Notes: generated from the sequence alone by a model not told the origin. A stretch of DNA of 64,000 bases from an uncultured bacterium (GCA_963695095.1 CAVOFT010000001.1:2816001-2880000), one strand, 5' to 3'. Counted from the first letter of the stretch, positions 6,791-21,635 are shown. Made by a program: numbers and translations.

Positions 6791-6874
6791 CGTGTTCCTG
6801 GGGTGAGAGAGCAAGCATGGGCGAAGCCCCCTCGGGGCTTCGTGTGGTGGTGGACTCACTCAAGGGGAGAAACG

Positions 6875-9800
6875 ATGAAGACGAGGCTTACCCTCAGTGT
6901 TCTTCTGATCGCGCTGCTGGCCTGGCCGGCACTGGCGGCACCGCCGCTGGACCGTCCGGGACCGGCGAGCCATGACGCCCTCAGCCTCACCGGCCGGAGT
7001 ACGGCCGCGAGCACGGCTGTTCAGCCAGTTTACCTCGATCGCGGCGTCGTATCGGATGCCTACCTCTTCGGGGCCGACCGGCTGGAGGCGCTCCAGAACG
7101 ATGACGGCGGCTGGGACTGGGAGCTCGACGATGGCAATCCTGCCAATGTCAGCCCGTTGAACACGATCGGTCCGATCGGCAAGGGCTTGGCAAGGGCCTA
7201 TCTGCATACTCTCGACGGGGACCACCTGGCCGCGCTCGCGCAGACCGGCACCCTGCTCCTGAGCAAGACCAACAACTTCTCGCCCTCGGACGGCTACCTG
7301 GCCGCGCAGCTCGACGCCATCTTCGGCGGCACGACCTACGTGGACCATATGACTGCGAGTTTCTATGACTTCCTGGCCGCCGGCACCTACAACCGGAATG
7401 GCCTCGGCACGCTCTACACGACAGCCGCCTATGTCCAGCTCATCCGCGACAGCCGGACGGGCAGTCAGGCAAACTTGGCTGCCTGGGATTTCGGCATGGG
7501 CCTGGTTGGCGCTCTCGCGGCCGGCGCGCCTACCGCAGCCTGGATCGCCGGCGTCGAGGCCGAGATCGATGAGCTGGACGGCGCTGACTCCTACGACGTC
7601 ATCGGCCTTGCGGGCGCTCTTTATGGCCTCGCTGCCGCCGGCGTCGAGTTCGATCCCACGGCGGGCGAGCATGCCGCCGCATCGAGCCTGGCCGACCTCG
7701 CCGCGATCCTGGCGAGCTACCAGATCGACCTCGGCGGCTTCGCCTGGAACTCCGACTACGTGATCCCCAACGACAGCAACGAGACCATCCAGGAGACGGC
7801 CTACGCGATCCTGGCCCTTGCGGAGGTCGCACGCCCAGAGGACGCCGACAACATCTTCGGAGCCAGCGTCTACCTGCTGAGCGTCCAGCTTGCCACGGGT
7901 GGCTGGGAGAACTACCCCACCAGTGGCGAGAACAACGAAGTCACCGCCGAGGCGCTCTGGGGCCTCGATGCGGCGGGCGCGGAGATCAGCGAAGTCTGGG
8001 TCGACGACGACTTCACCAGCGCCACACCCGGCTGGGGCATCACCCACTTCGCCAGCATTCAGGACGGCATCGATGCGGTGGACGGCAGCACAGTGCATGT
8101 CGCTGCCGGCACCTATGAAGAGCAACTCAACATTGACAAGGTCATCGAGATCGCAGGCGCAGGCAAGGCATTGACCACCATCCTTTCGCCGGTGACCTTG
8201 ACTGATTACTACACGACAAGCGCCGACAACTACCCTGTGGTTTTCGTGCATGACACCGACGGGGTGAACATCCACGATCTCACCGTGGATGGCGCCGGTC
8301 GCGGCAATGCAAACTATCGTTTCATGGGCGTTGCCTTCTACAATGCCGGAGGCACGCTGCAGGACTGCGATGTTGTCGGCATCGAAGACACTCCCTTCAG
8401 CGGCAGCCAGCACGGAAACGCCATCTACGCATGGGACGATATCGCCCCGGCGCACACCGTGAACGTAATCGATTGCGCGGTGAGCGACTTCCAGAAGAAC
8501 GGCATCACCCTGAATGGCTCGCAGTGCACGGGGCATGTCGAGGGTTGTACGGTGACGGGCAAGGGCCCGACGCCCATCACTGCCCAGAACGGCATTCAAC
8601 TCGCCTACGGCGTGACTGCAGCCGTACTCGACTGCGACGTCATGGGCCTCAACTACACCGGCGGCGGCTATGCGGCTGCGGGCATCCTGATCTATCAATC
8701 TCCGTCGGTCACGCTCTCCGGTGACTGGACGGCCACCGACAACTACGTCGGCATCCTCTGTGAGGATAGCAATGCCGACATCAGCGGCGGCTTCATCTCC
8801 AACCAGGACCCCGACAGCTGGGACGGAATCTACGCGCGCAACTTCGGCACTCGCTCCAGCGGCCATGATGGTCGCGGCAGCGCCTCTCCCGTCGAGGAGG
8901 CGAGCAGCTACCAGCCTGGGCGTGCCAATCAGAGCGTGAGCATCTCCGGCGTGACCATTGACGGTCATGATCGTGCGGATAGCTGGGGCATCAACCTGTA
9001 CGCTGCCAGCGAGCAACTCGACGTCGAGATCCAGAACGTCCAGGTAACGGACTTCGACATCGGCATCCGCGCCGTGGAGAATGGCGGCACGGTCACCAGC
9101 AGCACGGGGCAGAGCGTGATCGCCAGCAATGGCACCTTCGGCTTCTATGCCAGCGGCCTGACCTTCCAGGAGGCCACCGGCAACTGGTGGGGTGATGTCA
9201 CGGGACCTTACCACGCCACTAGCAACGCGGGCGGGCTTGCGAATCCCGTCAGCGACTTCGTTGACTTCGACCCCTGGCTCGGCGGCAACGTGGTCTTCGA
9301 CCCGGATCCGCAGGTGATCAACCTGGACGACGCCCCCGGCTACGCGGGCGAGGTGGTGCTGAGCTACCTGGGCGGCGGCTCGGGGCTGGTCTACGGCTAC
9401 TCGATCGACATCGTCTGGGATCCGGCGGTGATCACCAGCGTGGTCGTGGACCTGCCCGACACGGGTCCCTTCGCGATTGCGCCTGTCGTCGGCAGCACTG
9501 CGATCACGAACGGCCGGCGCTTCGACGCTGCGCTCGGCAACACGTCGATCGGGACGAGCATGGCCCCGTTGCTAAAGATCACCTATGTGGCCAACGGCAG
9601 CTTGGACGATGCCGAGTCACCCCTGACGCTCACGCTCAACAATTTCCGCGGCTACCCGAATCAGCCCCTCACCGGCTTCGTCGGAGATGACGGGTTGGTT
9701 ATCGTGGATATCGTGGCGCCTTCCGTGACGGGCGTTGCCATCGTGAACGACACCGTCAGCCCCGTTACCGGTTCGAACGACTTCGTGAAGGACACGGACA

Positions 9801-11313
9801 ACCTCACGGTGACGGCGACGGTCAGCGATGGTAGCGTGCTCACGGCCGCCAACATCAAGGCCGACCTTTCGGACCTTGGTGGCGGCGCGGCGGTCACTCC
9901 GGCGACCTACCTTGGCAACGTGGCAACCTGGAGCATCGCCTCCGCTGCCTGCACGCCTGCCGATGGGGCCCTGAGCGTGGTGGTGACGGTCACCGATCCC
10001 AGCGACAATGTTTCGATGGCCAGCGATGGCATCACGGCCGACAACACACTGCCGACCGTGGTCAGTGGCCTCGTCGTGACGCCGGGACACAACGAAGTCA
10101 ATGCCGTCTGGAACGAGGCCTCCGGTAATGATCTCAACTACTACCGGACCCTGCTCATGACGACGACCTGGGGCGACTATCCCCACTACGCGACGGCGGC
10201 TCCGGCCTATCCCGGCGCCGGGGCGCTCCCCGCCGCCTGGTCAGGCACCGGCACGACGACGACCCTCGCCTACGCGGCTGACGGCAGCGCGCGCGACCTC
10301 GTCTACGTCGGCGCCTTCGTCGTGGACATGGCCCTCAACTTCAGCGCTGCCGACGCGGGCGGTCAGGACCGGGCCACGAACTACTGGCTCGGCGATGTCC
10401 AGCCCGTCAGCTCGCCCCTGGGCGATGGCGACGTGGACGCCCTGGATGTCTCTCAGCTGGGCACAAGCTATGGCCTGGCGGAAGGCGCCGGAGGCTTCAA
10501 CGCCCACTGCGACGTCGGTCCCGACGGACGACTGGAGCGGCACGCGGCGTCCCCGCGCACCGACAACCTCGTCGGCTTCGAGGATCTGATGATCTTCGCG
10601 CTGAACTACGGCGACGTCGGCCCGCGCCGCGTTGCCCAGGGCAGCGAGATCGCGCAGCTCGAGCTGGTTCGCAGACGGCAGGACGGCGATTGGAGCCTCG
10701 TGCTCACCGAGCCCTGCGCCAACCTGAAGGCCCTGCACCTGACGGCCGCGCTGCCCGCGGGCGTCAAGGCCGATGCTGATCCCGGGCGGCAGCTGCTCGA
10801 GCAGCAGGCCGGCCCGGTCTTCCTGCAGCAGATTCCCGGCCAGGGCCTGGATGTGAGCCTCGCGTTCTCGGCCGATGCGGCCTGGTCATCTCGCGGCCAG
10901 GGCGCTGCTCTTCAGCGTGCGCCTGCCGGCGGGGGTCACTCCCGGCGACATCGAGCTCGGCGATCGCGATGCGGCGAATGCCGCTCAGCTCGGCCTTCGA
11001 GCTCGAGCGAGACCACCGACGTGGCCGACCTGCCCACGGTCTACCGTCTCGCGGGCAACTACCCCAACCCCTTCAACCCGAAGACCGCGATCAGCTTCGA
11101 TCTGCCCGAAGTCGCAGTTCGTGACGCTGGCGGTCTTCGGCGCCGACGGCCGGCGCATCGCCACCCTGCTCGACGAGCGGATGGCGGCCGGCCGTCACAG
11201 CGCGATCTGGGACGGCCGCGACGACACGGCAAGCCGGTCGCCACGGGTGTCTACTTCGCGCGCATCGAGGCGGGTCCGCTCGCGGAGACCCACAAGATGC
11301 TGCTCTGAAGTAG
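6875..11313 (+). CDS. Large secreted protein: signal peptide, alpha/alpha-toroid (prenyltransferase/squalene-cyclase QW-like repeats), beta-helix, cohesin-like, Ig, dockerin-like and FlgD-Ig domains; indels in the 3' part
   Basis: RBS ggggaga then ATG at 6875. LQNDDGGW, YQIDLGGFAW and VQLATGGW repeats. Beta-helix paralogous to gene 1576. NYWLGDV...FEDLMIFALNYG; GNYPNPFNP. The true end is probably ...LK-TAG at 11311-11313 after an indel. Confidence 0.8.
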
Positions 11314-11337
11314 CGTGCCGGTACACTACTAGTCCCG

Positions 11338-11363
11338 AGGGGGGCCGGCTACGGCCCCCCTCC
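11338..11363 (+). terminator. GC-rich intergenic hairpin without a U-tract
   Basis: gaggggggccg-gcta-cggcccccctc. Confidence 0.55.
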
Positions 11364-11381
11364 ATCGTCCAGGAGATCGCC

Positions 11382-12165
11382 ATGCGCCGTCTCCTCTTCG
11401 CCTCGCTGCTTGATCCTCTGGCGCCACGGCCAGCCAGGCCAAGCGTCGAGCTGCGCTTCGATCCTGCCGACCAGCACGTCGACCACCGGCGCGAACGGCA
11501 CGCTCTCGGTCATGGTCGACGATGCGCTGGACATCCGCACGATCGAGCTCACCGTCACCTACGACCCAGCCATCCTCACCAGCCTCGCCGGCATCCCCGG
11601 GCAGCTCTTGACCGCTCGGGCTGCTCGCTGTTCCACGACTTCCAGCATGGCACGGCCGGCCAGTGGTATGGCGCCTGCGTGGCGCTCGGCTTCGACTGCT
11701 GGGTGACCGGCCCCGGCGAGCTCTATCGCTGGACCTTCAACGGCGACGCATCCCGGCACCAGCCCCATCGACGGTCGTCGCAGGTGCGTCTCTACGATCC
11801 CGCAGGCGAACATCATCGCGGACGTCACCCTGCCCGGCACGACGGTGCTCGTCGGCGAGGGCACGGCGAGCCCGCCGCCGCCGGCGCCGGGCCTCGAGCT
11901 GGGCATCGCGCCCAACCCCTTCAATCCGGGCTGCCGGATCACGCTCGCCGCCTCGGCGCCCGGCCCCGCCAGCCTCGAGGTCTTCGACCTCGCCGGTCAT
12001 CGCGTGGCAAGGCCCTGGCAGGGCATCCTGGACGCGGGAGCTACGAGTCTCGACTGGCAGGCCGTCGACAGCGCCGGCCGCCCGCTGGCCAGCGGTGTCT
12101 ACCTTTTCCGCCTCACGGACGCCGCCGGCCGCTCCCTCACCCGCCGGGGCACCCTGCTCAAGTAA
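11382..12165 (+). CDS. Small secreted cohesin-like plus FlgD-Ig protein, frameshifted
   Basis: aggag RBS then ATG (MRRLLFASLL). Fragments IRTIELTVTYDPAIL and GPGELYRWTFNG, then APNPFNP...LASGVYLFRL...TLLK, lie in different frames. Confidence 0.65.
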
Positions 12166-12258
12166 GCCCCCCTATTGCGCGGCCCCGGCTCGGCTGCTAG
12201 CTTATCCGCGTTCCCTATCCGCTTTTCCCGCTTCACCCAATGCCCAGGACGGATGACC

Positions 12259-13380
12259 ATGGCAGACAAGACCGCCGATCTCGCCGGACCCGGCGTCAGC
12301 ACCTACGAGGAAGTCGCGAAGGCGCTCCCCGTCGGCTACAAGTCCGTGCTCACTCCCAACGAGACGCAGAAGGCCCTCTACGCCGTGAAGCGCGCGATCG
12401 AGGACGGGCTGGCCCGCGAGCTCAACGTGATGCTGGTGCAGTGCCCGCTGATCCTCGACAAGCACAGCGGCATGAACGACTACCTGGACCGCGACGGCTC
12501 GCGCACGCCGGTGGACTTCCTGGCCGGCCTCGGCCTGCCCCAGCGCATGGAAGCGCAGGTGGTGCAGGCGGCCACCAAGTGGAAGCGCTTCGCGCTGAAG
12601 CAGTACGGCTGCCAGGTCGGCGAGGGCATCAACACGGACATGCGCGCCGTGCGCAAGGACTACTTCCTGGACCACGACCACAGCAGCTACGTGGACCAGT
12701 GGGACTGGGAGCGCGTGATCACGGCCAAGGACCGCAACCTCGAGTTCCTCACCATGATCGTCAAGAAGATCTGGAAGGTGCTCGTCGAGGCCGAGGATCT
12801 CGCCCACGACATGTACCCGCAGCTGGACAAGTACGAGAAGATGCCCCGCGAGCTGGTCTTCCTGCACGCCGAGGAGATCCTCGAGCGCTATCCCGACCTG
12901 CCGCGCAAGCAGCGCGAGACGAACATCATCCAGGAGCACCCGGCGATCTTCATCTACGGTATCGGCCACACGCTGGCCGACGGCTACCCCCACGAGATGC
13001 GCGCCGCCGACTACGACGACTGGGTCACGCCCAGCGTGGTCAAGAAGGGCGTGCAGATGCACGGCCTCAACGGCGACATCCTGGTGTGGAACAAGATCAC
13101 GCATCGGCGCCACGAGCTGAGCAGCATGGGCATCCGCGTCACCAAGGAAACGCTCAAGGAGCAGCTCAAGATCACCGGGCAGGAGCACTTCCTCAAGATG
13201 CCCTACCACAAGATGATCCTGAACGACGAGATCCCGCTGAGCATCGGCGGCGGGCTCGGCCAGAGCCGCATCTACAGCTACATCCTCAAGAAGGCCGCCC
13301 TCGGCGAGGTGAGCGTGACGATCTGGCCCGAGCAGCTGCACAAGATCTGCGCGGAGAAGAACATCCACCTGCTGCGCTAG
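12259..13380 (+). CDS. asnA: Aspartate--ammonia ligase (asparagine synthetase A)
   Basis: VVQAATKWKR, HSSYVDQWDWERVI, RAADYDDW, GLNGDILVW, ELSSMGIRV and SIGGGLGQSR signatures. Alternative start at 12253. Confidence 0.93.
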   Translation: MADKTADLAGPGVSTYEEVAKALPVGYKSVLTPNETQKALYAVKRAIEDGLARELNVMLVQCPLILDKHSGMNDYLDRDGSRTPVDFLAGLGLPQRMEAQVVQAATKWKRFALKQYGCQVGEGINTDMRAVRKDYFLDHDHSSYVDQWDWERVITAKDRNLEFLTMIVKKIWKVLVEAEDLAHDMYPQLDKYEKMPRELVFLHAEEILERYPDLPRKQRETNIIQEHPAIFIYGIGHTLADGYPHEMRAADYDDWVTPSVVKKGVQMHGLNGDILVWNKITHRRHELSSMGIRVTKETLKEQLKITGQEHFLKMPYHKMILNDEIPLSIGGGLGQSRIYSYILKKAALGEVSVTIWPEQLHKICAEKNIHLLR

Positions 13381-13659: not shown

Positions 13660-15114
13660 TCACTTCCGGTGATCGCGCACGAAGGCCTCGAGCTCGGGCA
13701 GCCCGCCCTGGAAGACCAGGTAGCCGTCGTGCGTCTCCCGCTCGGTGATGTCGTCGGCCACCGGCGTCGTCATGATGCGGCGGACCTCCTCGAGCTCATC
13801 GCTCTGCCCCAGGGCCCAGCCCAGCTTCATGTAGGCCACCTCGGGCAGCATGTTGGCCAGCGGCGTCACTCCCATCTCCATGATCTCGCGGCCGGTCTCG
13901 TAGACGTACATCTGCACGTAACCCCAGAGCGTCTGCACGGTCATGAAGACGCCCACCCCGGCCGCCCGCGCCCGCTCGATCGCCGGGTAGATGGGCCGGT
14001 TCACGTGCCCCAGCCCCGTGCCCGCGATGACGATGCCACGGTAGCCATGCTCGACGAGCGCGTCGATGACGTCCGCCTTCATCCCCGGGTAGTAGTAGAC
14101 GATCGCTGCCCGGTCGTCGAAGACGGGCGTCACCCGGAATTCCGCGAGCGCGGACGCCTTGGCCTCCGGGCGCCGCCCCTCCACGGCCGTGCGGAAGCGG
14201 CGCGGGTTGTAGTCCTGCCGGATGGGATGCACGCCCTCGCGGCTCACGGTGGCCAGCGGCGTGTCGCTCAGCGAGCGAAAGGTGCTGCGGTAGCTCGAGT
14301 GCATCTTGCGCACGCGGGTGCCCCGGTGGAGCAGGCCGTACTGGTCGCTGGTCGGCCCGAACATGCAGACCATCACCTCGGCGATGTCGCCCTGCCCCGC
14401 GGTCACCGCCGCGTGGATCAGGTTCAGCGCGGCGTCGGAGCTGGGGCGGTCGCTGCTGCGCTGGCTGCCCACCATCACGATGGGCACGGGCGGGTTCTGC
14501 AGCATGAAGCTGAGCACGGCCGCCGTGTGGGACATCGTGTCCGTGCCGTGGCCGATGACGATGCCGTCGGCCCCCGCGCGAATCGCGCTCTCCACGGCCA
14601 GCGCGGTGCCGATCCACTGCTCGGGGCCCATGTTCTCGCTGAAGACGCCGTAGAGCTTCTCGGTCTCCAGGTTGCAGACGTCCGCCAGCTCGGGCACGGA
14701 GCCGTAGAGCTCGCCCGGCGTGAAGGCGGGAATCACGGCCCCCGTGCGGTAGTCCAGGCGGCTGGCGATGGTGCCGCCCGTGCCGAAGAGCTTCACGAAG
14801 GGCTTGCCGGCGTCGCGCGGGAAGGCCTGCTCGGGAATCTTGTAGCGCGCCTCCTTGCGGCCCAGCTCGGTCAGGCGAATCACCGTGTCCGCATGGAGGC
14901 CCACGTTGTAGCCGCTGGCGAGCTTGAGCACGAGGTGATCGGCATCCGCGGTCACGCTGCGGGGCAGGATGATGCCGCGGAAGCGGCCCTGGCTGGTCTC
15001 GGCATCCACATCGCTCCAGACGCCGACGCCTTCCCGCTCGAGCAGGGCGCGGCCCGCCCCGCGATAGCCCTTGAAGCGCTCCTCGCTCGCGTTGGGATTC
15101 ACGGGCTCGCTCAT
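13660..15114 (-). CDS. gatD: Glutamyl-tRNA(Gln) amidotransferase subunit D (archaeal type)
   Basis: GatD-specific N-domain (GIILPRS..D..HLVLKLASGYNVG) followed by a type-I asparaginase core: GTGGTIASRLDYRTG, HGTDTM, GSQRSSDRPSSD, RVRKMHSS, GTGLGH, MLPEVAYMKLGW. ATG overlaps the gatE stop (ATGA). Confidence 0.92.
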   Translation of the reverse strand: MSEPVNPNASEERFKGYRGAGRALLEREGVGVWSDVDAETSQGRFRGIILPRSVTADADHLVLKLASGYNVGLHADTVIRLTELGRKEARYKIPEQAFPRDAGKPFVKLFGTGGTIASRLDYRTGAVIPAFTPGELYGSVPELADVCNLETEKLYGVFSENMGPEQWIGTALAVESAIRAGADGIVIGHGTDTMSHTAAVLSFMLQNPPVPIVMVGSQRSSDRPSSDAALNLIHAAVTAGQGDIAEVMVCMFGPTSDQYGLLHRGTRVRKMHSSYRSTFRSLSDTPLATVSREGVHPIRQDYNPRRFRTAVEGRRPEAKASALAEFRVTPVFDDRAAIVYYYPGMKADVIDALVEHGYRGIVIAGTGLGHVNRPIYPAIERARAAGVGVFMTVQTLWGYVQMYVYETGREIMEMGVTPLANMLPEVAYMKLGWALGQSDELEEVRRIMTTPVADDITERETHDGYLVFQGGLPELEAFVRDHRK

Positions 15115-17051
15115 CGCCGCTCCTTTCCCGGCGCCGATCCGGTGGTCACCGTCTGCAGCGCGAGCTGCGCGGCCAGGCGCGCGCCCGCGCAGCTCACGCC
15201 GAGGCTCTCGCGCAGGCGACCGAGGCGATAGCGCCCCAGGCTCCCCTCTGCGAGCGGCCGCGCGGGGGGCGACATCGCGGCAAGGGCCGCGGCCACCCGC
15301 GCCGCCAGGGCGGCGTCGTCCAGGGGCGGCGGCGGCACGGGCCGCTCCTGGCCGCCGCTCCGCGCCCAGCGGGCGAGGGCGCCGCGGTCCGCCTCGCGCG
15401 GCGCGCGGGCGAGAAAGTCGGGCAGCCAGACCAGGCCGGCCGGATCGGGCATGGCCAGACCCTCGCGCTCGAGCGCCCGCCAGTGAGCGGTGAGGAGGAT
15501 GGCCAGGCGCCGGAGGCCGGGGCCGTCCGGCGCCAGCGCTTCGGCCAGGGCGAGGAAGGCCTTGGCCCGGCCCTGGCGCTGGAGCTGGCCGGCCAGCTCG
15601 GCGCCCAGGCCGGTGGCAGCGAGAGCCGCCTCCTCCTCCCAGGGACGCGGGGGCAGCGCGGCGCCGATGCTGTTCCAGTCCGCGATGGGCAGCGGCAGGG
15701 GCGGCAGATCCGTGTCCGGGTACATGCGATCCGGGCCGGGCAGCACGCGCTCGAAGCGCGTGGTGCCGTCCGGCTGCGACTGCCTCGTCTCGCGGGGCAC
15801 ACCGGTCAGGGCTTCCTGGGCGCGCAGCTCGATCTCGCCGAGCGCCGTCTCCAGGTCGCGGGCGCCGCCCCAGACCATGAGGATGGGCGGGTCCTCGCCG
15901 ATGCCCAGCACCTGCCGCACGCGCTGCCACTCGCTCCAGGTGGGCCCGTCGTCGAGCTGCTCGCTGGAGACGAGGTTGGGATTGCGGTCCAGGCAGGCGA
16001 CCACGCGCACGCGGTCGCGGAACTCGCTCAGGAAGCGTACGCCCGGCTGCACCTCGCGGCGCAGCACCCCCTCGAAGCCGGGCAGGGCGATGGCGCCCAG
16101 GCGGTCGCCTCGCGCCAGGGCCTTCTGCACCGGGCGATACTGGCAGGTCTTGAACAGCCCCGACACCTCGGCGCGCAGGCCCTGGTAGCCCAGGGCGGGC
16201 AGGCCGCGCTCGACGAGCAGCTCGCGAATGTCCAGCAGGCTCTTCTGGCGCAGGGCCTCGTTGTGCACCAGGCGGCCGATGACGGGGATGCGGCTCACGC
16301 CCTTGATCTCGATGCGCGTGCCGCCGCGCACGCTGACGTTGACATCCTGCCGCGAAGCGCCCGCCCCGCGGCGCACCTTGCCCGTGATGCGGGTGAGGCG
16401 CCGCACCGCCTGGGCGGCGGCCTCCACCTCGGCGGGCGTGGCCAGCTCGGGAGCGGTGACCACCTCGATCAGGGGCATGCCCAGACGGTCGGTGCGGTAG
16501 CAGCGCAGGTGGCCCTGGTCCGAGAGCTCGCGGCTGGAGTCCTCCTCGATGCTGAGCTGCAGCACGCCCAGCGGGCGGCCGCTGGCGGGCAGGCTGCCCT
16601 GCACGCCGAGAATCGCCGTGCGCTGGAAGCCCGCCGGGATCGAGCCGTCCAGGTACTGCTTGCGCATCACGTGCAGCTCGCCCACGGGCTGCAGGCCCAG
16701 CAGCAGGGTGATCTCCATGGCGATGGCCAGGGCCTCGGGGTCGATGGCGAAGGGCGGCGCGTCGTCCATCTCGTAGGTGCAGACGCTGGCCTTGTTCAGC
16801 CGGTAGAGGATCTCCTTGCGCGTCTTGAATTCCATGAGCGCCGTGCCGTCGTACTCGCCAAGCTCGGAGAGCGTGGGCCGCATGTGGCGCAGGATCTCGG
16901 CGTCGAAGGCGTCGCTGTAGAGCCCGGCCGGGCAGCGGCAGAAGAGCTTGCGCCGGGTCAGGAGCTGGACGTGCACCTCCAGGCCGGCCACGAGGCCCAG
17001 GGCGGCATAGTCGTCGGCACTGAGCGTGCCGTACTCGGGCAGTTGCGACAT
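15111..17051 (-). CDS. gatE: Glutamyl-tRNA(Gln) amidotransferase subunit E (archaeal type)
   Basis: DYAALGLVAGLEVHVQL..RKLFCRCP, LSELGEYD, DGS..GFQRTA, EED, DRLGMPLIEV, RQDVNVS, EIKGV, an AspRS-like insertion (LPGFEGVL..EVQPG) and ETR..PDG.T.F.R.LPG..RMYP.TD.PP. ggag RBS before the ATG at 17051. Confidence 0.92.
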   Translation of the reverse strand: MSQLPEYGTLSADDYAALGLVAGLEVHVQLLTRRKLFCRCPAGLYSDAFDAEILRHMRPTLSELGEYDGTALMEFKTRKEILYRLNKASVCTYEMDDAPPFAIDPEALAIAMEITLLLGLQPVGELHVMRKQYLDGSIPAGFQRTAILGVQGSLPASGRPLGVLQLSIEEDSSRELSDQGHLRCYRTDRLGMPLIEVVTAPELATPAEVEAAAQAVRRLTRITGKVRRGAGASRQDVNVSVRGGTRIEIKGVSRIPVIGRLVHNEALRQKSLLDIRELLVERGLPALGYQGLRAEVSGLFKTCQYRPVQKALARGDRLGAIALPGFEGVLRREVQPGVRFLSEFRDRVRVVACLDRNPNLVSSEQLDDGPTWSEWQRVRQVLGIGEDPPILMVWGGARDLETALGEIELRAQEALTGVPRETRQSQPDGTTRFERVLPGPDRMYPDTDLPPLPLPIADWNSIGAALPPRPWEEEAALAATGLGAELAGQLQRQGRAKAFLALAEALAPDGPGLRRLAILLTAHWRALEREGLAMPDPAGLVWLPDFLARAPREADRGALARWARSGGQERPVPPPPLDDAALAARVAAALAAMSPPARPLAEGSLGRYRLGRLRESLGVSCAGARLAAQLALQTVTTGSAPGKERR

Positions 17052-17256
17052 CGGGGGCTCCGGAAAAGAGGGAAGCGCTGCAGCCCCGCAAGGTACAGGA
17101 CCCGACCGGGCTTTTCCAGCCTCCTGCCGACCGGAGTTTCGCTTGCCTCGCAAACTCATGGGGGGGAGCCACATGGCTCCCACTTCGCGCTTCCGGCCGC
17201 GACTTTCGGATGACGACGGAGCGCCGCCCTGCTAGGCTGCGCGCGGGAGGATTATC

Positions 17257-18045
17257 GTGCGCAGCCTGAACCTGTCCCCCTTCTGGCGCTGGGCCATCGC
17301 CCTCGTGCTCGCTCTCGCCGGGCTCTTCGCCCAGCGCATGCTCTCCAGCAAGCTGCCCCTCGCCGTGCTCGTCGACTGGGAAGGCCGCCAGGTGACTGCC
17401 GAGCTCGCCCGCAGCCACGTCGGCCCGGGCGGCCAGCGCTTGAGCGTCCAGGGCCTCGATGCCAACTGGACGGGCGAGCTGATCTGGCGGCCGGCCGGCG
17501 AGGGCAACTTCACGCGCATGGCCCTGCGCAATCTGGGCAGCCTCATCACGGGCGAAATCCCGGCGCAAGCGCGGGGCGCGCAGGTGGAGTACCGGATCGA
17601 GATCACGACACCGCGCGGGCTGCTGCGGCTGCCTGCCCACGGCACCGTGATCACGCAGTTCCGGGGCGCGGCGCCGCTGTGGGTGAGCCTGCCGCATATC
17701 GTGTTGCTCGCGTTGGGCTTGCTGCTGGCGATGCGCGCGGGCATGGAGGCCCTCGCCCTGGGCGATCACGCGCTGGGTTTCGCCAGCGGCAGCCTGCTGG
17801 CCTTCCTCGGCGGCGGCCTCATCCTGGGCCCGCTGATGAAGCACCATGCCTATGGGTTCCTCTGGGCGGGGCCGCCGCAAGGCCTGGACAGCACCGACAC
17901 CAAGACCCTGATCCTGGTGCTCGCCTGGCTGCTGCCGTTCCTGCTCCGGGCCCGCGGCCGGCGCGTGCGGCGCTGGATCCTTCTCGCCGCTGCTCTGAGC
18001 CTGGCCGCCTTCCTCATCCCCCATAGCAGCTTCGGCCCGGCCTGA
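17257..18045 (+). CDS. Conserved hypothetical membrane protein
   Basis: ggagg RBS then GTG. N-terminal TM, small soluble domain and about 4 C-terminal TM helices. Confidence 0.7.
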   Translation: MRSLNLSPFWRWAIALVLALAGLFAQRMLSSKLPLAVLVDWEGRQVTAELARSHVGPGGQRLSVQGLDANWTGELIWRPAGEGNFTRMALRNLGSLITGEIPAQARGAQVEYRIEITTPRGLLRLPAHGTVITQFRGAAPLWVSLPHIVLLALGLLLAMRAGMEALALGDHALGFASGSLLAFLGGGLILGPLMKHHAYGFLWAGPPQGLDSTDTKTLILVLAWLLPFLLRARGRRVRRWILLAAALSLAAFLIPHSSFGPA

Positions 18046-19625: not shown

Positions 19626-21635
19626 ATGAATACTCAGTTTCCCGCTCGAGCTCGAGAGCGGCAAGCGACCCCGGCCCTCCGCGCGCTCCTCCTCGCCCTC
19701 GCCCTCGGCGCCGCCCTGCCCTGCACCGCCGAGGAGGCGCCGGCCCCCGTCCCCCAGTACATCGCCCTGGATGACAGCACCTATGTGAAGGTCTACGCCC
19801 TCGACGCGATGGTGGTGACCGGCTCGCGCACCGAGCAGCGCCTGGCCGACGTCACCGTGGCCACCGAGCTCATCCAGCGCGAGGACCTGGAGCGCTCGGG
19901 TGCGCCCGATCTGGCCGAGTTTCTCGAGAAGCAGGCCGGCGTCGTGGTCAACCACAGCCTCTTCGGCAGCGGTATCCAGCTGCAGGGCCTGGGCAGCGAG
20001 TACGTGCTCGTGCTCGTCAACGGCGAGCGGGCGCTGGGGCGCAAGGGCGGCGTCATCGACCTCTCGCGCTATGCCACGGACAACATCGAACGCGTCGAGG
20101 TGGTGAAGGGCAACCAGTCGGCGCTCTACGGCGCCGACGCCATCGGGGGCGTCATCAACATCATCACCCGCGCCAGCCGGCAGCCCCTGGAGATGGACCT
20201 GCGCGGGGATTTCGGCGACGGCGGCGCCCGCGACCTCGGCGCCAGCCTGGGCTACCGCGGCAAGCTGTGGACGAGCCGCACGACCGGCAGCTGGGACGAG
20301 GCCGCCGCCTACGATCTGGCGCCGGCGGACCCCGAGACGAGCGTCGACGCCTTCGAGGAGCTGAGCCTGGCCAACCACAGCGAGTGGCGCCTGGCCGAGC
20401 GGCTGCAGCTCAAGGGCGACGCCAGCTACATCTCGCGCGATCAGATAGGCGTGGACGGCGGCACCGTCGCCTCGCCCGCCGTCTTCGACCGCACGGCGAA
20501 GACCGAGATCGTCTCCTTCGCCGCCGGGCCCGACCACCACGGCGCCGACGGCAGTCGCAGCAAGGGCAGCCTGCAGTTCAGCTACTACCTGGACCAGTAT
20601 CTCGCCGACCAGCGCGGCTCCACGGCCCTGGACCAGTACCAGGAAACCCGCCAGCGGCTCCTGCACGCCTCGGCCCAGCACGATCGCCTGCTGCCGGGCC
20701 GCCATCTGCTCTCGGGCGGCGCCGAGGCCTTCCAGGAGTGGATCGAGACGGAGCGACTGGTGGGCGGCGAGGGCGATCGCGAGCGGCTCGGACTCTTCCT
20801 GCAAGATCAATGGGAGCAGGGGCCCCAGGGCCGCCTGAAGCTGATCGGCGGCCTGCGCCTGGACAGCGACTCCCAGTTCGGCAGCCATCTGACGCCCAAG
20901 CTCAGCTTGCGCCGGGACATCGGGGAGACGCTCATCCTCCGCGCCGGGCTGGGCTCGGGCTACCGAGCGCCGGACTTCAAGGAGCTGTACATCTACTTCG
21001 CCCACCCGGCCGTGGGCTACGTGGTCTACGGCAACCCGGAGCTGCAGCCGGAGATCTCGCGCAGCGCGAACCTGGGCCTGGAGTGGCGCAGCCGCCAGGG
21101 CTTCTGGTTCTCGGTGAACGCCTTCCACCACGACTTCGAGAACCTGATCCAGGGCCTCATCACGGACGAGATGGTGGGCGGTCTCAGCAAGGCCATCTAC
21201 GTGAACGTCGCGTCGGCGACGATCCAGGGCATCGAGGCCAGCCTGCGCCTGAGGCCGCTGCCGGCCCTCGACTGCGAGCTGGGCTACGCCTTCCTCGACA
21301 GTCGCGACGAGGAGACGGGCGGCATCCTGGACGGCCGGCCGCGTCACCGCGGCACGCTCAACCTGGACTATCGCTTCGTGCGGCTCGCAGCCAACCTCTC
21401 TCTGCGCGCCTCGCTGGTCGGCGAGCGCAGCTTCACGCAGGAGACCAGCGGCCTGGCCTCCACGACGGCCGATCCCTATGCCCTGATCGACCTGCGCGCC
21501 AGCAAGGAAGTGGGCGCCCACCTGGGCCTGTCCCTGGGCGTCAAGAACATCCTCGACGCCGGCGACCACGACTACCTGCGCGTGGCGCCGCGCCGCGTCG
21601 TCGCCGGCTTCAATCTCCGCCACGGCAAGAACTAG
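19626..21635 (+). CDS. TonB-dependent receptor (HmuR/CirA-like, probably heme or iron)
   Basis: MVVTGSR TonB box, plug motif IERVEVVKG.QSALYGADAIGGVINIIT, YRAP.F.ELY and GNPEL.PE; adjacent to hmuY. Confidence 0.9.
   Translation: MNTQFPARARERQATPALRALLLALALGAALPCTAEEAPAPVPQYIALDDSTYVKVYALDAMVVTGSRTEQRLADVTVATELIQREDLERSGAPDLAEFLEKQAGVVVNHSLFGSGIQLQGLGSEYVLVLVNGERALGRKGGVIDLSRYATDNIERVEVVKGNQSALYGADAIGGVINIITRASRQPLEMDLRGDFGDGGARDLGASLGYRGKLWTSRTTGSWDEAAAYDLAPADPETSVDAFEELSLANHSEWRLAERLQLKGDASYISRDQIGVDGGTVASPAVFDRTAKTEIVSFAAGPDHHGADGSRSKGSLQFSYYLDQYLADQRGSTALDQYQETRQRLLHASAQHDRLLPGRHLLSGGAEAFQEWIETERLVGGEGDRERLGLFLQDQWEQGPQGRLKLIGGLRLDSDSQFGSHLTPKLSLRRDIGETLILRAGLGSGYRAPDFKELYIYFAHPAVGYVVYGNPELQPEISRSANLGLEWRSRQGFWFSVNAFHHDFENLIQGLITDEMVGGLSKAIYVNVASATIQGIEASLRLRPLPALDCELGYAFLDSRDEETGGILDGRPRHRGTLNLDYRFVRLAANLSLRASLVGERSFTQETSGLASTTADPYALIDLRASKEVGAHLGLSLGVKNILDAGDHDYLRVAPRRVVAGFNLRHGKN

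Follow-up and report, generated by a model that had tools for sequence, protein, structure and literature searches.

The window analysed here, a 64,000-nucleotide stretch of DNA from an uncultured bacterium, contains a gatE-gatD gene pair that is intact, resident in its host, under purifying selection and long present in the lineage. The pair is an ordinary member of an under-discussed, already annotated bacterial GatDE clade. We consider it probable that this bacterial-type operon is responsible for a parallel or mischarge-clearing amidation reaction, with Glu-tRNA(Gln) as the likely substrate. The host appears to be a Krumholzibacteriia-like bacterium, with the class assigned by the nearest named records.

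Organization of the gatE-gatD locus

Both genes are located on the minus strand. The gatE gene (15111..17051), identified by profile, PDB and model matches, encodes the kinase/transamidase subunit of GatDE (P0002, 646 amino acids), and gatD (13660..15114), identified by profile, Pfam and PDB matches, encodes the asparaginase-type glutaminase subunit (P0001, 484 amino acids). Direct translation gives open frames for both genes, and the overlap behind the translational coupling that had been claimed can be read directly from the sequence, with the ATG of gatD placed on the TGA of gatE as ATGA (15111..15114, minus strand). A consensus scan of the region preceding gatE detected a sole sigma-70-like site, GGGACA-16-GATAAT (17251..17278, minus strand), at a distance of ~200 bases from the start codon; this site is weak, with 9 of the 12 consensus positions matched and 0.2 sites expected from shuffles. 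The flanks had been described as diderm bacterial with sigma70 promoters; their bacterial character is borne out by a TonB-dependent receptor (19626-21635) and FlgD_ig-tailed proteins, and upstream of gatE the promoters come down to this one site.

The neighbor of gatD is asnA (aspartate-ammonia ligase; 12253..13380, plus strand), which is convergent with gatD and lies outside the operon (Pfam AsnA, 266.6 bits; TIGR00669, 283.3 bits, just below the cut-off of 292.8). Within the same family, 5 of 10 loci have asnA beside gatD, compared with none of the 10 loci of family f2 and none of 90 loci from other lineages (E <= 1e-10). It was considered as a functional partner of GatDE and rejected, being convergent with gatD and a neighbor in its own family only, and is read here as local synteny. 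When the ORFs of 100 loci were clustered, no other conserved neighbor emerged, the commonest cluster beyond gatE, gatD and shadow frames being present in 14 of the 100; a Pfam scan of 16 clusters, which passed over four of the 25 largest, detected no translation-related family.

Features of the GatD and GatE proteins

The GatD protein exceeds the equivalog cut-off of TIGR02153 gatD_arch (480 bits, cut-off 324) and the cut-off of NF003217 (477.8 bits, cut-off 310). Its Pfam domains are GatD_N (PF18195; residues 39-77, 14884..15000, minus strand; 38.7 bits, cut-off 25.7), Asparaginase (PF00710) and Asparaginase_C (PF17763), in agreement with the preliminary description, in which an asparaginase core is preceded by an N-terminal domain specific to GatD; the TGGTIASR, HGTDT and RKMH motifs named there are found in the translation. 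Among PDB chains, 1zq1_A and 2d6f_A match with 383 and 372 bits, respectively, whereas asparaginases reach at most 136 bits, and the TGGTIAS, HGTDT, SSDRPSSDA and RKMH stretches align with the same stretches of both chains. We take the Thr/Thr/Asp/Lys motifs to be the catalytic residues of the asparaginase type.

In the NCBIfam profile search, GatE scores 383.3 bits against TIGR00134 gatE_arch (equivalog cut-off 319.55) and 452.9 bits against NF003107, just below the cut-off of 456, whereas the best GatB model yields only 101.5 bits (cut-off 314.8). The PDB matches follow the same pattern, with 309 bits for 1zq1_C and 293 bits for 2d6f_C, whereas no GatB chain exceeds 78 bits. The suggested comparison of GatD/GatE with GatB/AnsA sides with GatDE: both equivalog cut-offs are passed, and the GatB profile and the GatB and asparaginase chains of the PDB match far more weakly. 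The AlphaFold model of GatE (pLDDT 91.5) has 1zq1_C (E 2.5e-49) and 2d6f as its top Foldseek matches, with a target-normalised TM of 0.83 to the archaeal GatDE structure.

The insertion that had been noted as lacking in GatB is recovered as well. The Pfam GatB_N (PF02934) match covers residues 21-454 of GatE against 271 profile positions, leaving ~120-160 extra residues, and GatB chains align to GatE only up to approximately residue 275. Taken together, the Pfam span, PDB alignments and Foldseek place this AspRS-like domain at about residues 285-400 (15850..16199, minus strand), with approximate boundaries. The Foldseek matches of the model to AspRS chains are weak (E 4e-3 to 5e-2), and PF02938, which is precomputed for some homologues, was not detected in GatE by the Pfam search. 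In an alignment of 48 bacterial-type and archaeal GatE sequences, including three named archaeal ones (Heimdallarchaeota, Ignisphaera and Nitrososphaerota), 61 columns are invariant; judging from this comparison, the presumed catalytic core appears to be unchanged relative to archaeal GatE.

The C-terminal helical region (residues 471-646; 15114..15641, minus strand) is probably a diverged YqeY-like tail. It differs from archaeal GatE in that PF02637 fails to recognise it in the Pfam search, and the NCBIfam matches stop at residue 532-533. The tail aligns lengthwise with bacterial and archaeal GatE tails, with G611 and G623 nearly invariant and the terminal motif altered, and is modelled as helices, with a block pLDDT of 77-95 up to residue 630. 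In comparisons with four relatives, dN/dS is higher in the tail (0.31-0.94) than in the core (0.14-0.38), indicating faster evolution of the tail. Within the bacterial-type clade, divergence beyond the profile is seen in the window's family and family f2, in which matches end at about position 510 of 622, whereas families f4-f8 match over the full length. In known enzymes this tail binds the tRNA D-loop, and its divergence and fast evolution in the window GatE sit uneasily with the reading we prefer.

The overall architecture is shared with the archaeal GatDE of Pyrococcus abyssi (1ZQ1) and of Methanothermobacter thermautotrophicus in complex with tRNA-Gln (2D6F). All have two subunits with a common domain order: a GatD consisting of the N-terminal domain and the asparaginase core, and a GatE with a cradle domain, the AspRS-like insertion and the helical tail; the genes are likewise adjacent and coupled. 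The window GatD is set apart from both 1ZQ1 and 2D6F by ~16 inserted residues at around position 307-323, and GatE is at most 43% identical to archaeal representatives, compared to at least 45% within the bacterial-type clade. In GatCAB, the kinase/transamidase core of GatB is paralogous, and PMC2330236 describes the chemistry of tRNA-dependent amidation as the same; the window GatE differs from GatB in carrying the insertion domain, and the ammonia donor is an asparaginase-type GatD instead of an amidase-type GatA.

Residence of the gene pair in the bacterial genome

The codon style of gatD and gatE is host-like, as had been claimed: GC3 is 0.95, and the codon-usage distance falls at the 65th-70th percentile among the long ORFs of the genome. 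The order asnA-gatD-gatE-membrane protein-dUTPase-like gene is kept in two assemblies of the same genus and also in further assemblies of the same family, and the two same-genus assemblies together with the codon usage uphold the view that contamination is not involved. Contamination with archaeal DNA, chimeric assembly or very recent horizontal acquisition could draw on the slightly raised GC over 14-16 kb (0.736, above the adjacent 2-kb bins); given that the source genome consists of 2 contigs with an estimated contamination of 0.39%, that gene order and codon usage are as above, and that the nearest relatives are bacterial, an artefact of this kind is extremely improbable. In a check of read coverage, the share of sampled words did not exceed 0.12 in any public run. 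A single soil metatranscriptome study yielded, from two of its runs, contigs that map to asnA, gatD and gatE and are ~88-95% alike, and therefore derive from relatives; such libraries can contain DNA, and the contigs give neither strand nor level, so that they are no evidence of expression in this organism.

The arrangement of the pair extends well beyond the window. All 20 class loci have gatE followed by gatD, and so do 83 of the 90 that belong to other lineages, the 7 remaining loci mostly ending near gatE. Estimated with four relatives, dN/dS amounts to 0.18-0.20 in gatD and 0.14-0.38 in the gatE core, which indicates purifying selection. These values also bear on whether GatDE is a decaying relic that GlnRS and GatCAB have rendered dispensable and that is heading for loss. 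Such decay would fit the redundancy with these enzymes, the apparent absence of GatDE from 12 of the 61 genomes of the class and the relaxed constraint on the GatE tail (dN/dS up to 0.94). However, both genes read through without interruption, the two equivalog HMMs score above cut-off, gatD evolves at a dN/dS of ~0.2, GatD matches occur in 83 loci and are 60-72% identical over the best tblastn segment in 82 of them (50% in the remaining one, which is end-cut), and 47 of the 48 class GatE matches above cut-off have no internal stop, the exception (G022) having one TGA. Hence we regard ongoing decay as quite improbable.

The bacterial-type GatDE clade and its origin

In the GatE tree, the window protein falls within a bacterial-type clade of 44 sequences with an SH-aLRT support of 100. 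Its closest members, from public MAGs, are 78-91% identical to it; the gatE-gatD order is shared with the clade, and linkage to asnA is confined to the window's family. Next to the clade stand a Heimdallarchaeota GatE and a protein without a name; the support for this join is 92, under the star level of the tool. An old archaea-to-bacteria transfer, as originally proposed, is compatible with this topology as one possible origin; the tree is rooted by one long GatB branch, and of 10 basal members of the clade that were looked up, one carries an organism label.

The clade is present in many phyla. At least 8000 relatives were scored, those listed being labelled bacterial or unlabelled, and the NCBI name 'Glu-tRNA(Gln) amidotransferase subunit GatE' is already in use for proteins of Krumholzibacteria, Calditrichaeota, KSB1, Myxococcota and others. 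The expectation that similar annotations exist elsewhere is thus confirmed for both GatE and GatD, and the supposed rarity of the finding is not. The literature has a different emphasis: a 2022 review calls GatDE archaea-only and co-evolved with archaeal tRNA-Gln (PMC9499178), and no described bacterial GatDE was found at the level of listings and abstracts, a coverage that mostly excludes subscription journals.

Other routes to Gln-tRNA(Gln) in the host and its class

The preliminary description had cast GatDE as the pathway by which this bacterium makes Gln-tRNA(Gln), GatCAB or GlnRS being the usual bacterial means, and had proposed a genome survey for gatCAB, glnS, asnS and the GluRS type. 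All are present, and for the source genome a role of GatDE as their substitute is contradicted. Unlike the archaeal systems, GatDE here is encoded in a bacterium with GlnRS (glnS, 711.2 bits, cut-off 425.8) and GatCAB, the latter represented by a true gatA-gatB pair (C1:1547477-1550211; GatA 539 and GatB 506 bits, both above cut-off). The genome also encodes AsnRS (446 bits) and two bacterial-type GluRS above cut-off. One GluRS gene adjoins tRNA-Gln(CUG), tRNA-Glu(CUC) and glnS; its best match in the PDB is GluRS2 of Thermotoga, as solved in entry 3al0, a glutamine transamidosome. With GlnRS and GatA/GatB present, there is therefore no visible need for GatDE, which also counts against the explanation favoured here.

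Across the class, GatE is above cut-off in 48 of 61 genomes and split at contig ends in one more. GatE occurs without GatB in 15 of the 61, all with GlnRS, and without GlnRS in five, all with GatB; GlnRS is found beside GatE in 44 of 49 class genomes and, outside the class, in 45 of 50 genomes that carry GatE. A case for GatDE replacing GatCAB or GlnRS in this bacterium, in the archaeal manner, can draw on the intactness and conservation of the genes and on those 15 class genomes and 27 of the 50 outside ones in which no other amidotransferase was found; in three of the 50, neither GatB nor GlnRS was found. These three genomes may be incomplete, however, and their labelled kin in the set carry GlnRS, whereas among the 61 class genomes none has GatE as the only visible route to Gln-tRNA(Gln). 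Combined with the gene content of the source genome, this makes replacement quite improbable.

A second GluRS was also considered as a dedicated partner of GatDE and rejected, 18 GatE-bearing genomes having one copy and five GatE-lacking genomes having two. This independence of GluRS copy number from GatE, like the fact that no class genome depends on GatDE alone, is a point against the explanation favoured here.

The retention of an amidotransferase alongside both direct synthetases has a parallel in Bdellovibrio, Deinococcus and Thermus, which keep GatCAB beside GlnRS and AsnRS according to PMC4206432. These bacteria differ from the source genome, which has GatDE, together with routes to free asparagine (asnA and an AsnB-like gene, 312.9 bits).

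tRNA features and proposed function

Each of the two tRNA-Gln genes of the source genome combines a U1-A72 pair with a short D-loop, whereas the two tRNA-Glu genes show G1-C72 and a D-loop of greater length; U1-A72 is also present in tRNA-Asn. The inspection of the 1-72 pair that had been suggested thus returned the bacterial state in both tRNA-Gln genes and not the archaeal A1-U72. PMC2330236 describes the first pair and the D-loop as the features by which amidotransferases separate tRNA-Gln from tRNA-Glu; the two tRNAs of the host differ in these discriminators, which favours Glu-tRNA(Gln) as the substrate. By the same source and the review cited above (PMC9499178), A1-U72 is the pair read by archaeal GatDE, and its absence here is a further difference from the archaeal systems that weighs against the preferred explanation.

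By homology with archaeal GatDE, GatD would hydrolyse glutamine (or asparagine) to ammonia, and GatE would phosphorylate the side chain of the mischarged aminoacyl-tRNA and then amidate it. The likeliest substrate would be Glu-tRNA(Gln), produced by one of the two GluRS if that enzyme is non-discriminating. Beside GlnRS and GatCAB, GatDE would then be a parallel or mischarge-clearing route and not the sole source of Gln-tRNA(Gln). The substrate and every biochemical step are inferred.

Alternatively, the function might have changed towards another substrate, perhaps Asp-tRNA(Asn) as well, or a different acyl carrier, which would explain why GatDE is retained beside GlnRS despite full redundancy. 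The U1-A72 pair of tRNA-Asn, the diverged and fast-evolving tRNA-binding tail of GatE and the asnA neighbor in the window's family are all consistent with such a change. Against it, AsnRS is above cut-off in all 61 class genomes, asnA is convergent with gatD and linked within one family only, and the GatE core seems unaltered relative to archaea. In addition, of the two GatB-less genomes apparently without asnA and asnB, one (G027), from the genus in which this lack was suspected, has an AsnB-like gene (443 bits, pieces summed); the other (G042) has only a 169-bit match. On balance, a changed function appears unlikely. A contribution of GatDE to asparagine supply in genomes lacking asnA and asnB was examined separately and is not supported, AsnRS being present throughout.

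Implications

The amidation of Glu-tRNA(Gln) in parallel with GlnRS, or in clearing mischarged tRNA, remains the reading that we prefer. More tentatively, bacterial-type GatDE might not serve to form Gln-tRNA(Gln) in the way known from archaea and might, in most carriers, be kept beside GlnRS for a task that GlnRS cannot perform; if so, the fast-evolving GatE tail of the window's family would mark changed recognition. The bacterial U1-A72 pair implies that bacterial GatDE may read such a tRNA-Gln or else must have adapted to it. For the archaea-only view of GatDE, as worded in PMC9499178, the window is one more counterexample, long resident in a bacterial class. Because the clade is already annotated, a single window adds little beyond the testable question that is raised by the usual occurrence of GatDE beside GlnRS, namely, what purpose an amidotransferase serves when the direct synthetase is present.

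Structure and identity of the gatE-gatD pair

Positions 13660-17051 of the window are filled on the minus strand by two ORFs, gatE (17051 to 15111, 646 aa) upstream and gatD (15114 to 13660, 484 aa) downstream, with an ATGA overlap in which the TGA stop of gatE shares bases with the ATG start of gatD. GatD matches the family profile TIGR02153 with 480 bits (cut-off 324), comprises the Pfam domains GatD_N, Asparaginase and Asparaginase_C, contains the TGGTIASR, HGTDT and RKMH motifs, and scores 383 and 372 bits against the solved GatD chains versus at most 136 bits against any asparaginase. GatE reaches 383.3 bits with TIGR00134 (cut-off 319.55) and 452.9 bits, slightly below the cut-off of 456, with NF003107, compared to 101.5 bits with the best model of GatB, its paralogue in GatCAB; against solved chains, it scores 309 and 293 bits for GatE and at most 78 bits for GatB. 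The ORFs, overlap, motifs and profiles all agree with the coupled GatE and GatD genes proposed in the preliminary description. The top structural matches of the AlphaFold model of GatE (48-row input alignment, mean pLDDT 91.5) are the archaeal 1zq1_C and 2d6f; AspRS chains are matched weakly, as expected because of the insertion domain. A stretch of about 16 residues in GatD (approximately 307-323, around RFRTAVEGRRPEAKAS) is missing from both solved archaeal GatD chains.

Comparisons with four relatives give dN/dS ratios of 0.18-0.20 (gatD), 0.14-0.38 (GatE core) and 0.31-0.94 (GatE residues 471-640), which are probably overestimates because GC3 near 0.95 constrains synonymous sites as well. 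The NCBIfam GatE match ends near position 510 of 622 in the family of the window and one other family (f2), and is full length in families f4-f8. A Pfam search yields no PF02637 match in the GatE of the window; this domain is detected in many homologues. The tail can still be aligned to those of other GatE proteins and is helical in the model, with an altered terminal motif.

Residence in the bacterial genome

The genome (3.64 Mb in 2 contigs) is 93.5% complete with 0.39% contamination. The GC3 of gatD and gatE is 0.95, similar to their neighbours, and their codon-usage distances lie at the 70th and 65th percentiles, respectively, among 1103 long, high-GC3 ORFs from this genome. The order asnA, gatD, gatE, membrane protein and dUTPase-like gene is repeated in two same-genus assemblies, and parts of it are kept in other members of the family. 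The flanking genes encode, among others, a TonB-dependent receptor and FlgD_ig-tailed proteins, and the nearest named records are from Candidatus Krumholzibacteriia. Codon usage, synteny in relatives, bacterial flanks and nearest records rule out a contaminant, a chimera or a recent import, in line with the original reading of the flanks and host-like codons.

The asnA product (12175-13380, plus strand) scores 283.3 bits, slightly below the NCBIfam cut-off of 292.8, with about 40-64 additional N-terminal residues before the profile match. Within the class, at E <= 1e-30, 10 of the 11 family relatives have asnA, compared with just 6 of the 49 genomes from other families; its proximity to gatD is synteny at the family level and not an operon. 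At 6803-12165 (plus strand), an ORF of 1501 aa with weak beta-helix similarity precedes a short one whose C-terminal domain is of the FlgD_ig type; the region is also covered by several long shadow ORFs that overlap, as is typical of DNA with 70% GC.

Distribution and phylogeny of bacterial-type GatDE

GatE exceeds the cut-off in 48 of 61 sampled genomes of the class Krumholzibacteriia, covering all 8 sampled families, and is split at contig ends in one further genome. A single in-frame TGA inside the GatE match of another class genome (G022:C21:35615-37447) may reflect a sequencing error, a pseudogene or recoding. Scanning one genome per species gave at least 585 confirmed GatE stretches, the best 80 of which are all in bacteria-labelled records (Ignavibacteria, Melioribacteraceae, Aminicenantes, Eisenbacteria, Cloacimonetes, Gemmatimonadota, Myxococcota and others). 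At least 8000 relatives were scored in the protein search; the 120 listed carry a bacterial label or none and are already named GatE by NCBI. The order gatE then gatD is found in all 20 class loci and in 83 of the 90 loci from other lineages. Of the 83 loci with a GatD match, 82 show 60-72% GatD identity in the best tblastn segment and the remaining one, which is cut at its end, shows 50%. Apart from gatE and gatD, no neighbour occurs in more than 14 of the 100 loci.

Full-length GatE representatives, clustered at 50% identity, fall into two groups with 45-56% and 33-43% identity to the query; the three named members of the latter are from Heimdallarchaeota, Ignisphaera and Nitrososphaerota. 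The 89 rows of a rapidly built maximum-likelihood tree comprise 34 upper-group and 44 of 87 lower-group representatives together with 9 named loci, the window and, as root, the GatB of this genome. With the groups initially set by similarity to the query, the 44 bacterial-type rows all fall into a single clade (SH-aLRT 100). A Heimdallarchaeota row and one unlabelled row adjoin it (support 92, not starred) in a tree rooted on a single long branch with a taxon label for one of ten basal rows. The suggested old archaea-to-bacteria transfer, as a single event, would fit this tree, which does not demonstrate it.

Coexisting routes and predicted function

The genome also encodes, all over cut-off, GlnRS (711.2 bits), GatA adjoining GatB (539.1 and 506.1 bits), AsnRS (446.2 bits), a bacterial AspRS (705.3 bits) and two bacterial GluRS (488.7 and 474.8 bits). 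Given GlnRS and GatA/GatB in the same genome, GatDE is not the sole route of the cell, and its proposed role in place of GatCAB or GlnRS is not supported. Within about 5.3 kb (G000:C1:3413737-3419037, contig 1 of this genome), glnS, tRNA-Gln(CUG), tRNA-Glu(CUC) and one of the two gltX copies form a Glu/Gln decoding cluster.

Among the class genomes, GatE co-occurs with both GatB and GlnRS in 29 of 61, with GlnRS without GatB in 15 and with GatB without GlnRS in 5. None has GatE without both, which proves little because only about 1.5 such genomes are expected by chance and related genomes are not independent. GatB is present in 11 of the 12 class genomes lacking GatE, the twelfth being 71% complete. 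AsnRS is universal (61/61), and GluRS copy number shows no correspondence with GatE. Among 50 surveyed genomes of the 80 GatE-bearing ones in other lineages, 45 have GlnRS and 23 have GatB; 3 genomes, which may be incomplete, yielded neither.

The two tRNA-Gln and the two tRNA-Asn genes carry the bacterial U1-A72 pair; in the two tRNA-Glu genes the pair is G1-C72 and the D-loop is longer. The genome also contains a tRNA-Sec (C1:1473424-1473521), and ARAGORN reports a tRNA-like gene (G000:C1:736525-736612) whose anticodon has four letters (gcat) and to which no amino acid is assigned. According to PMC2330236 and PMC9499178, archaeal GatDE reads A1-U72 and the D-loop, whereas bacterial GatCAB reads U1-A72. 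Thus, if it acts on tRNA-Gln, the GatDE of this genome must read the bacterial first pair, unlike its archaeal counterpart. A changed substrate of bacterial-type GatDE is conceivable; homology alone points to Glu-tRNA(Gln) amidation as the likeliest activity, which would run alongside GlnRS and GatCAB.

The gatE-gatD pair belongs to the bacterial-type GatDE clade, has long been resident in its lineage and is, by its sequence features, probably functional; the preliminary description holds for the gene pair itself, and its interpretation holds in part. The listings and abstracts of the literature searched contain no description of a bacterial GatDE, and a 2022 review presents GatDE as now confined to archaea (PMC9499178). 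Within a kind that is known but seldom discussed, this locus is unexceptional, and it is of moderate interest for the question of GatDE function.
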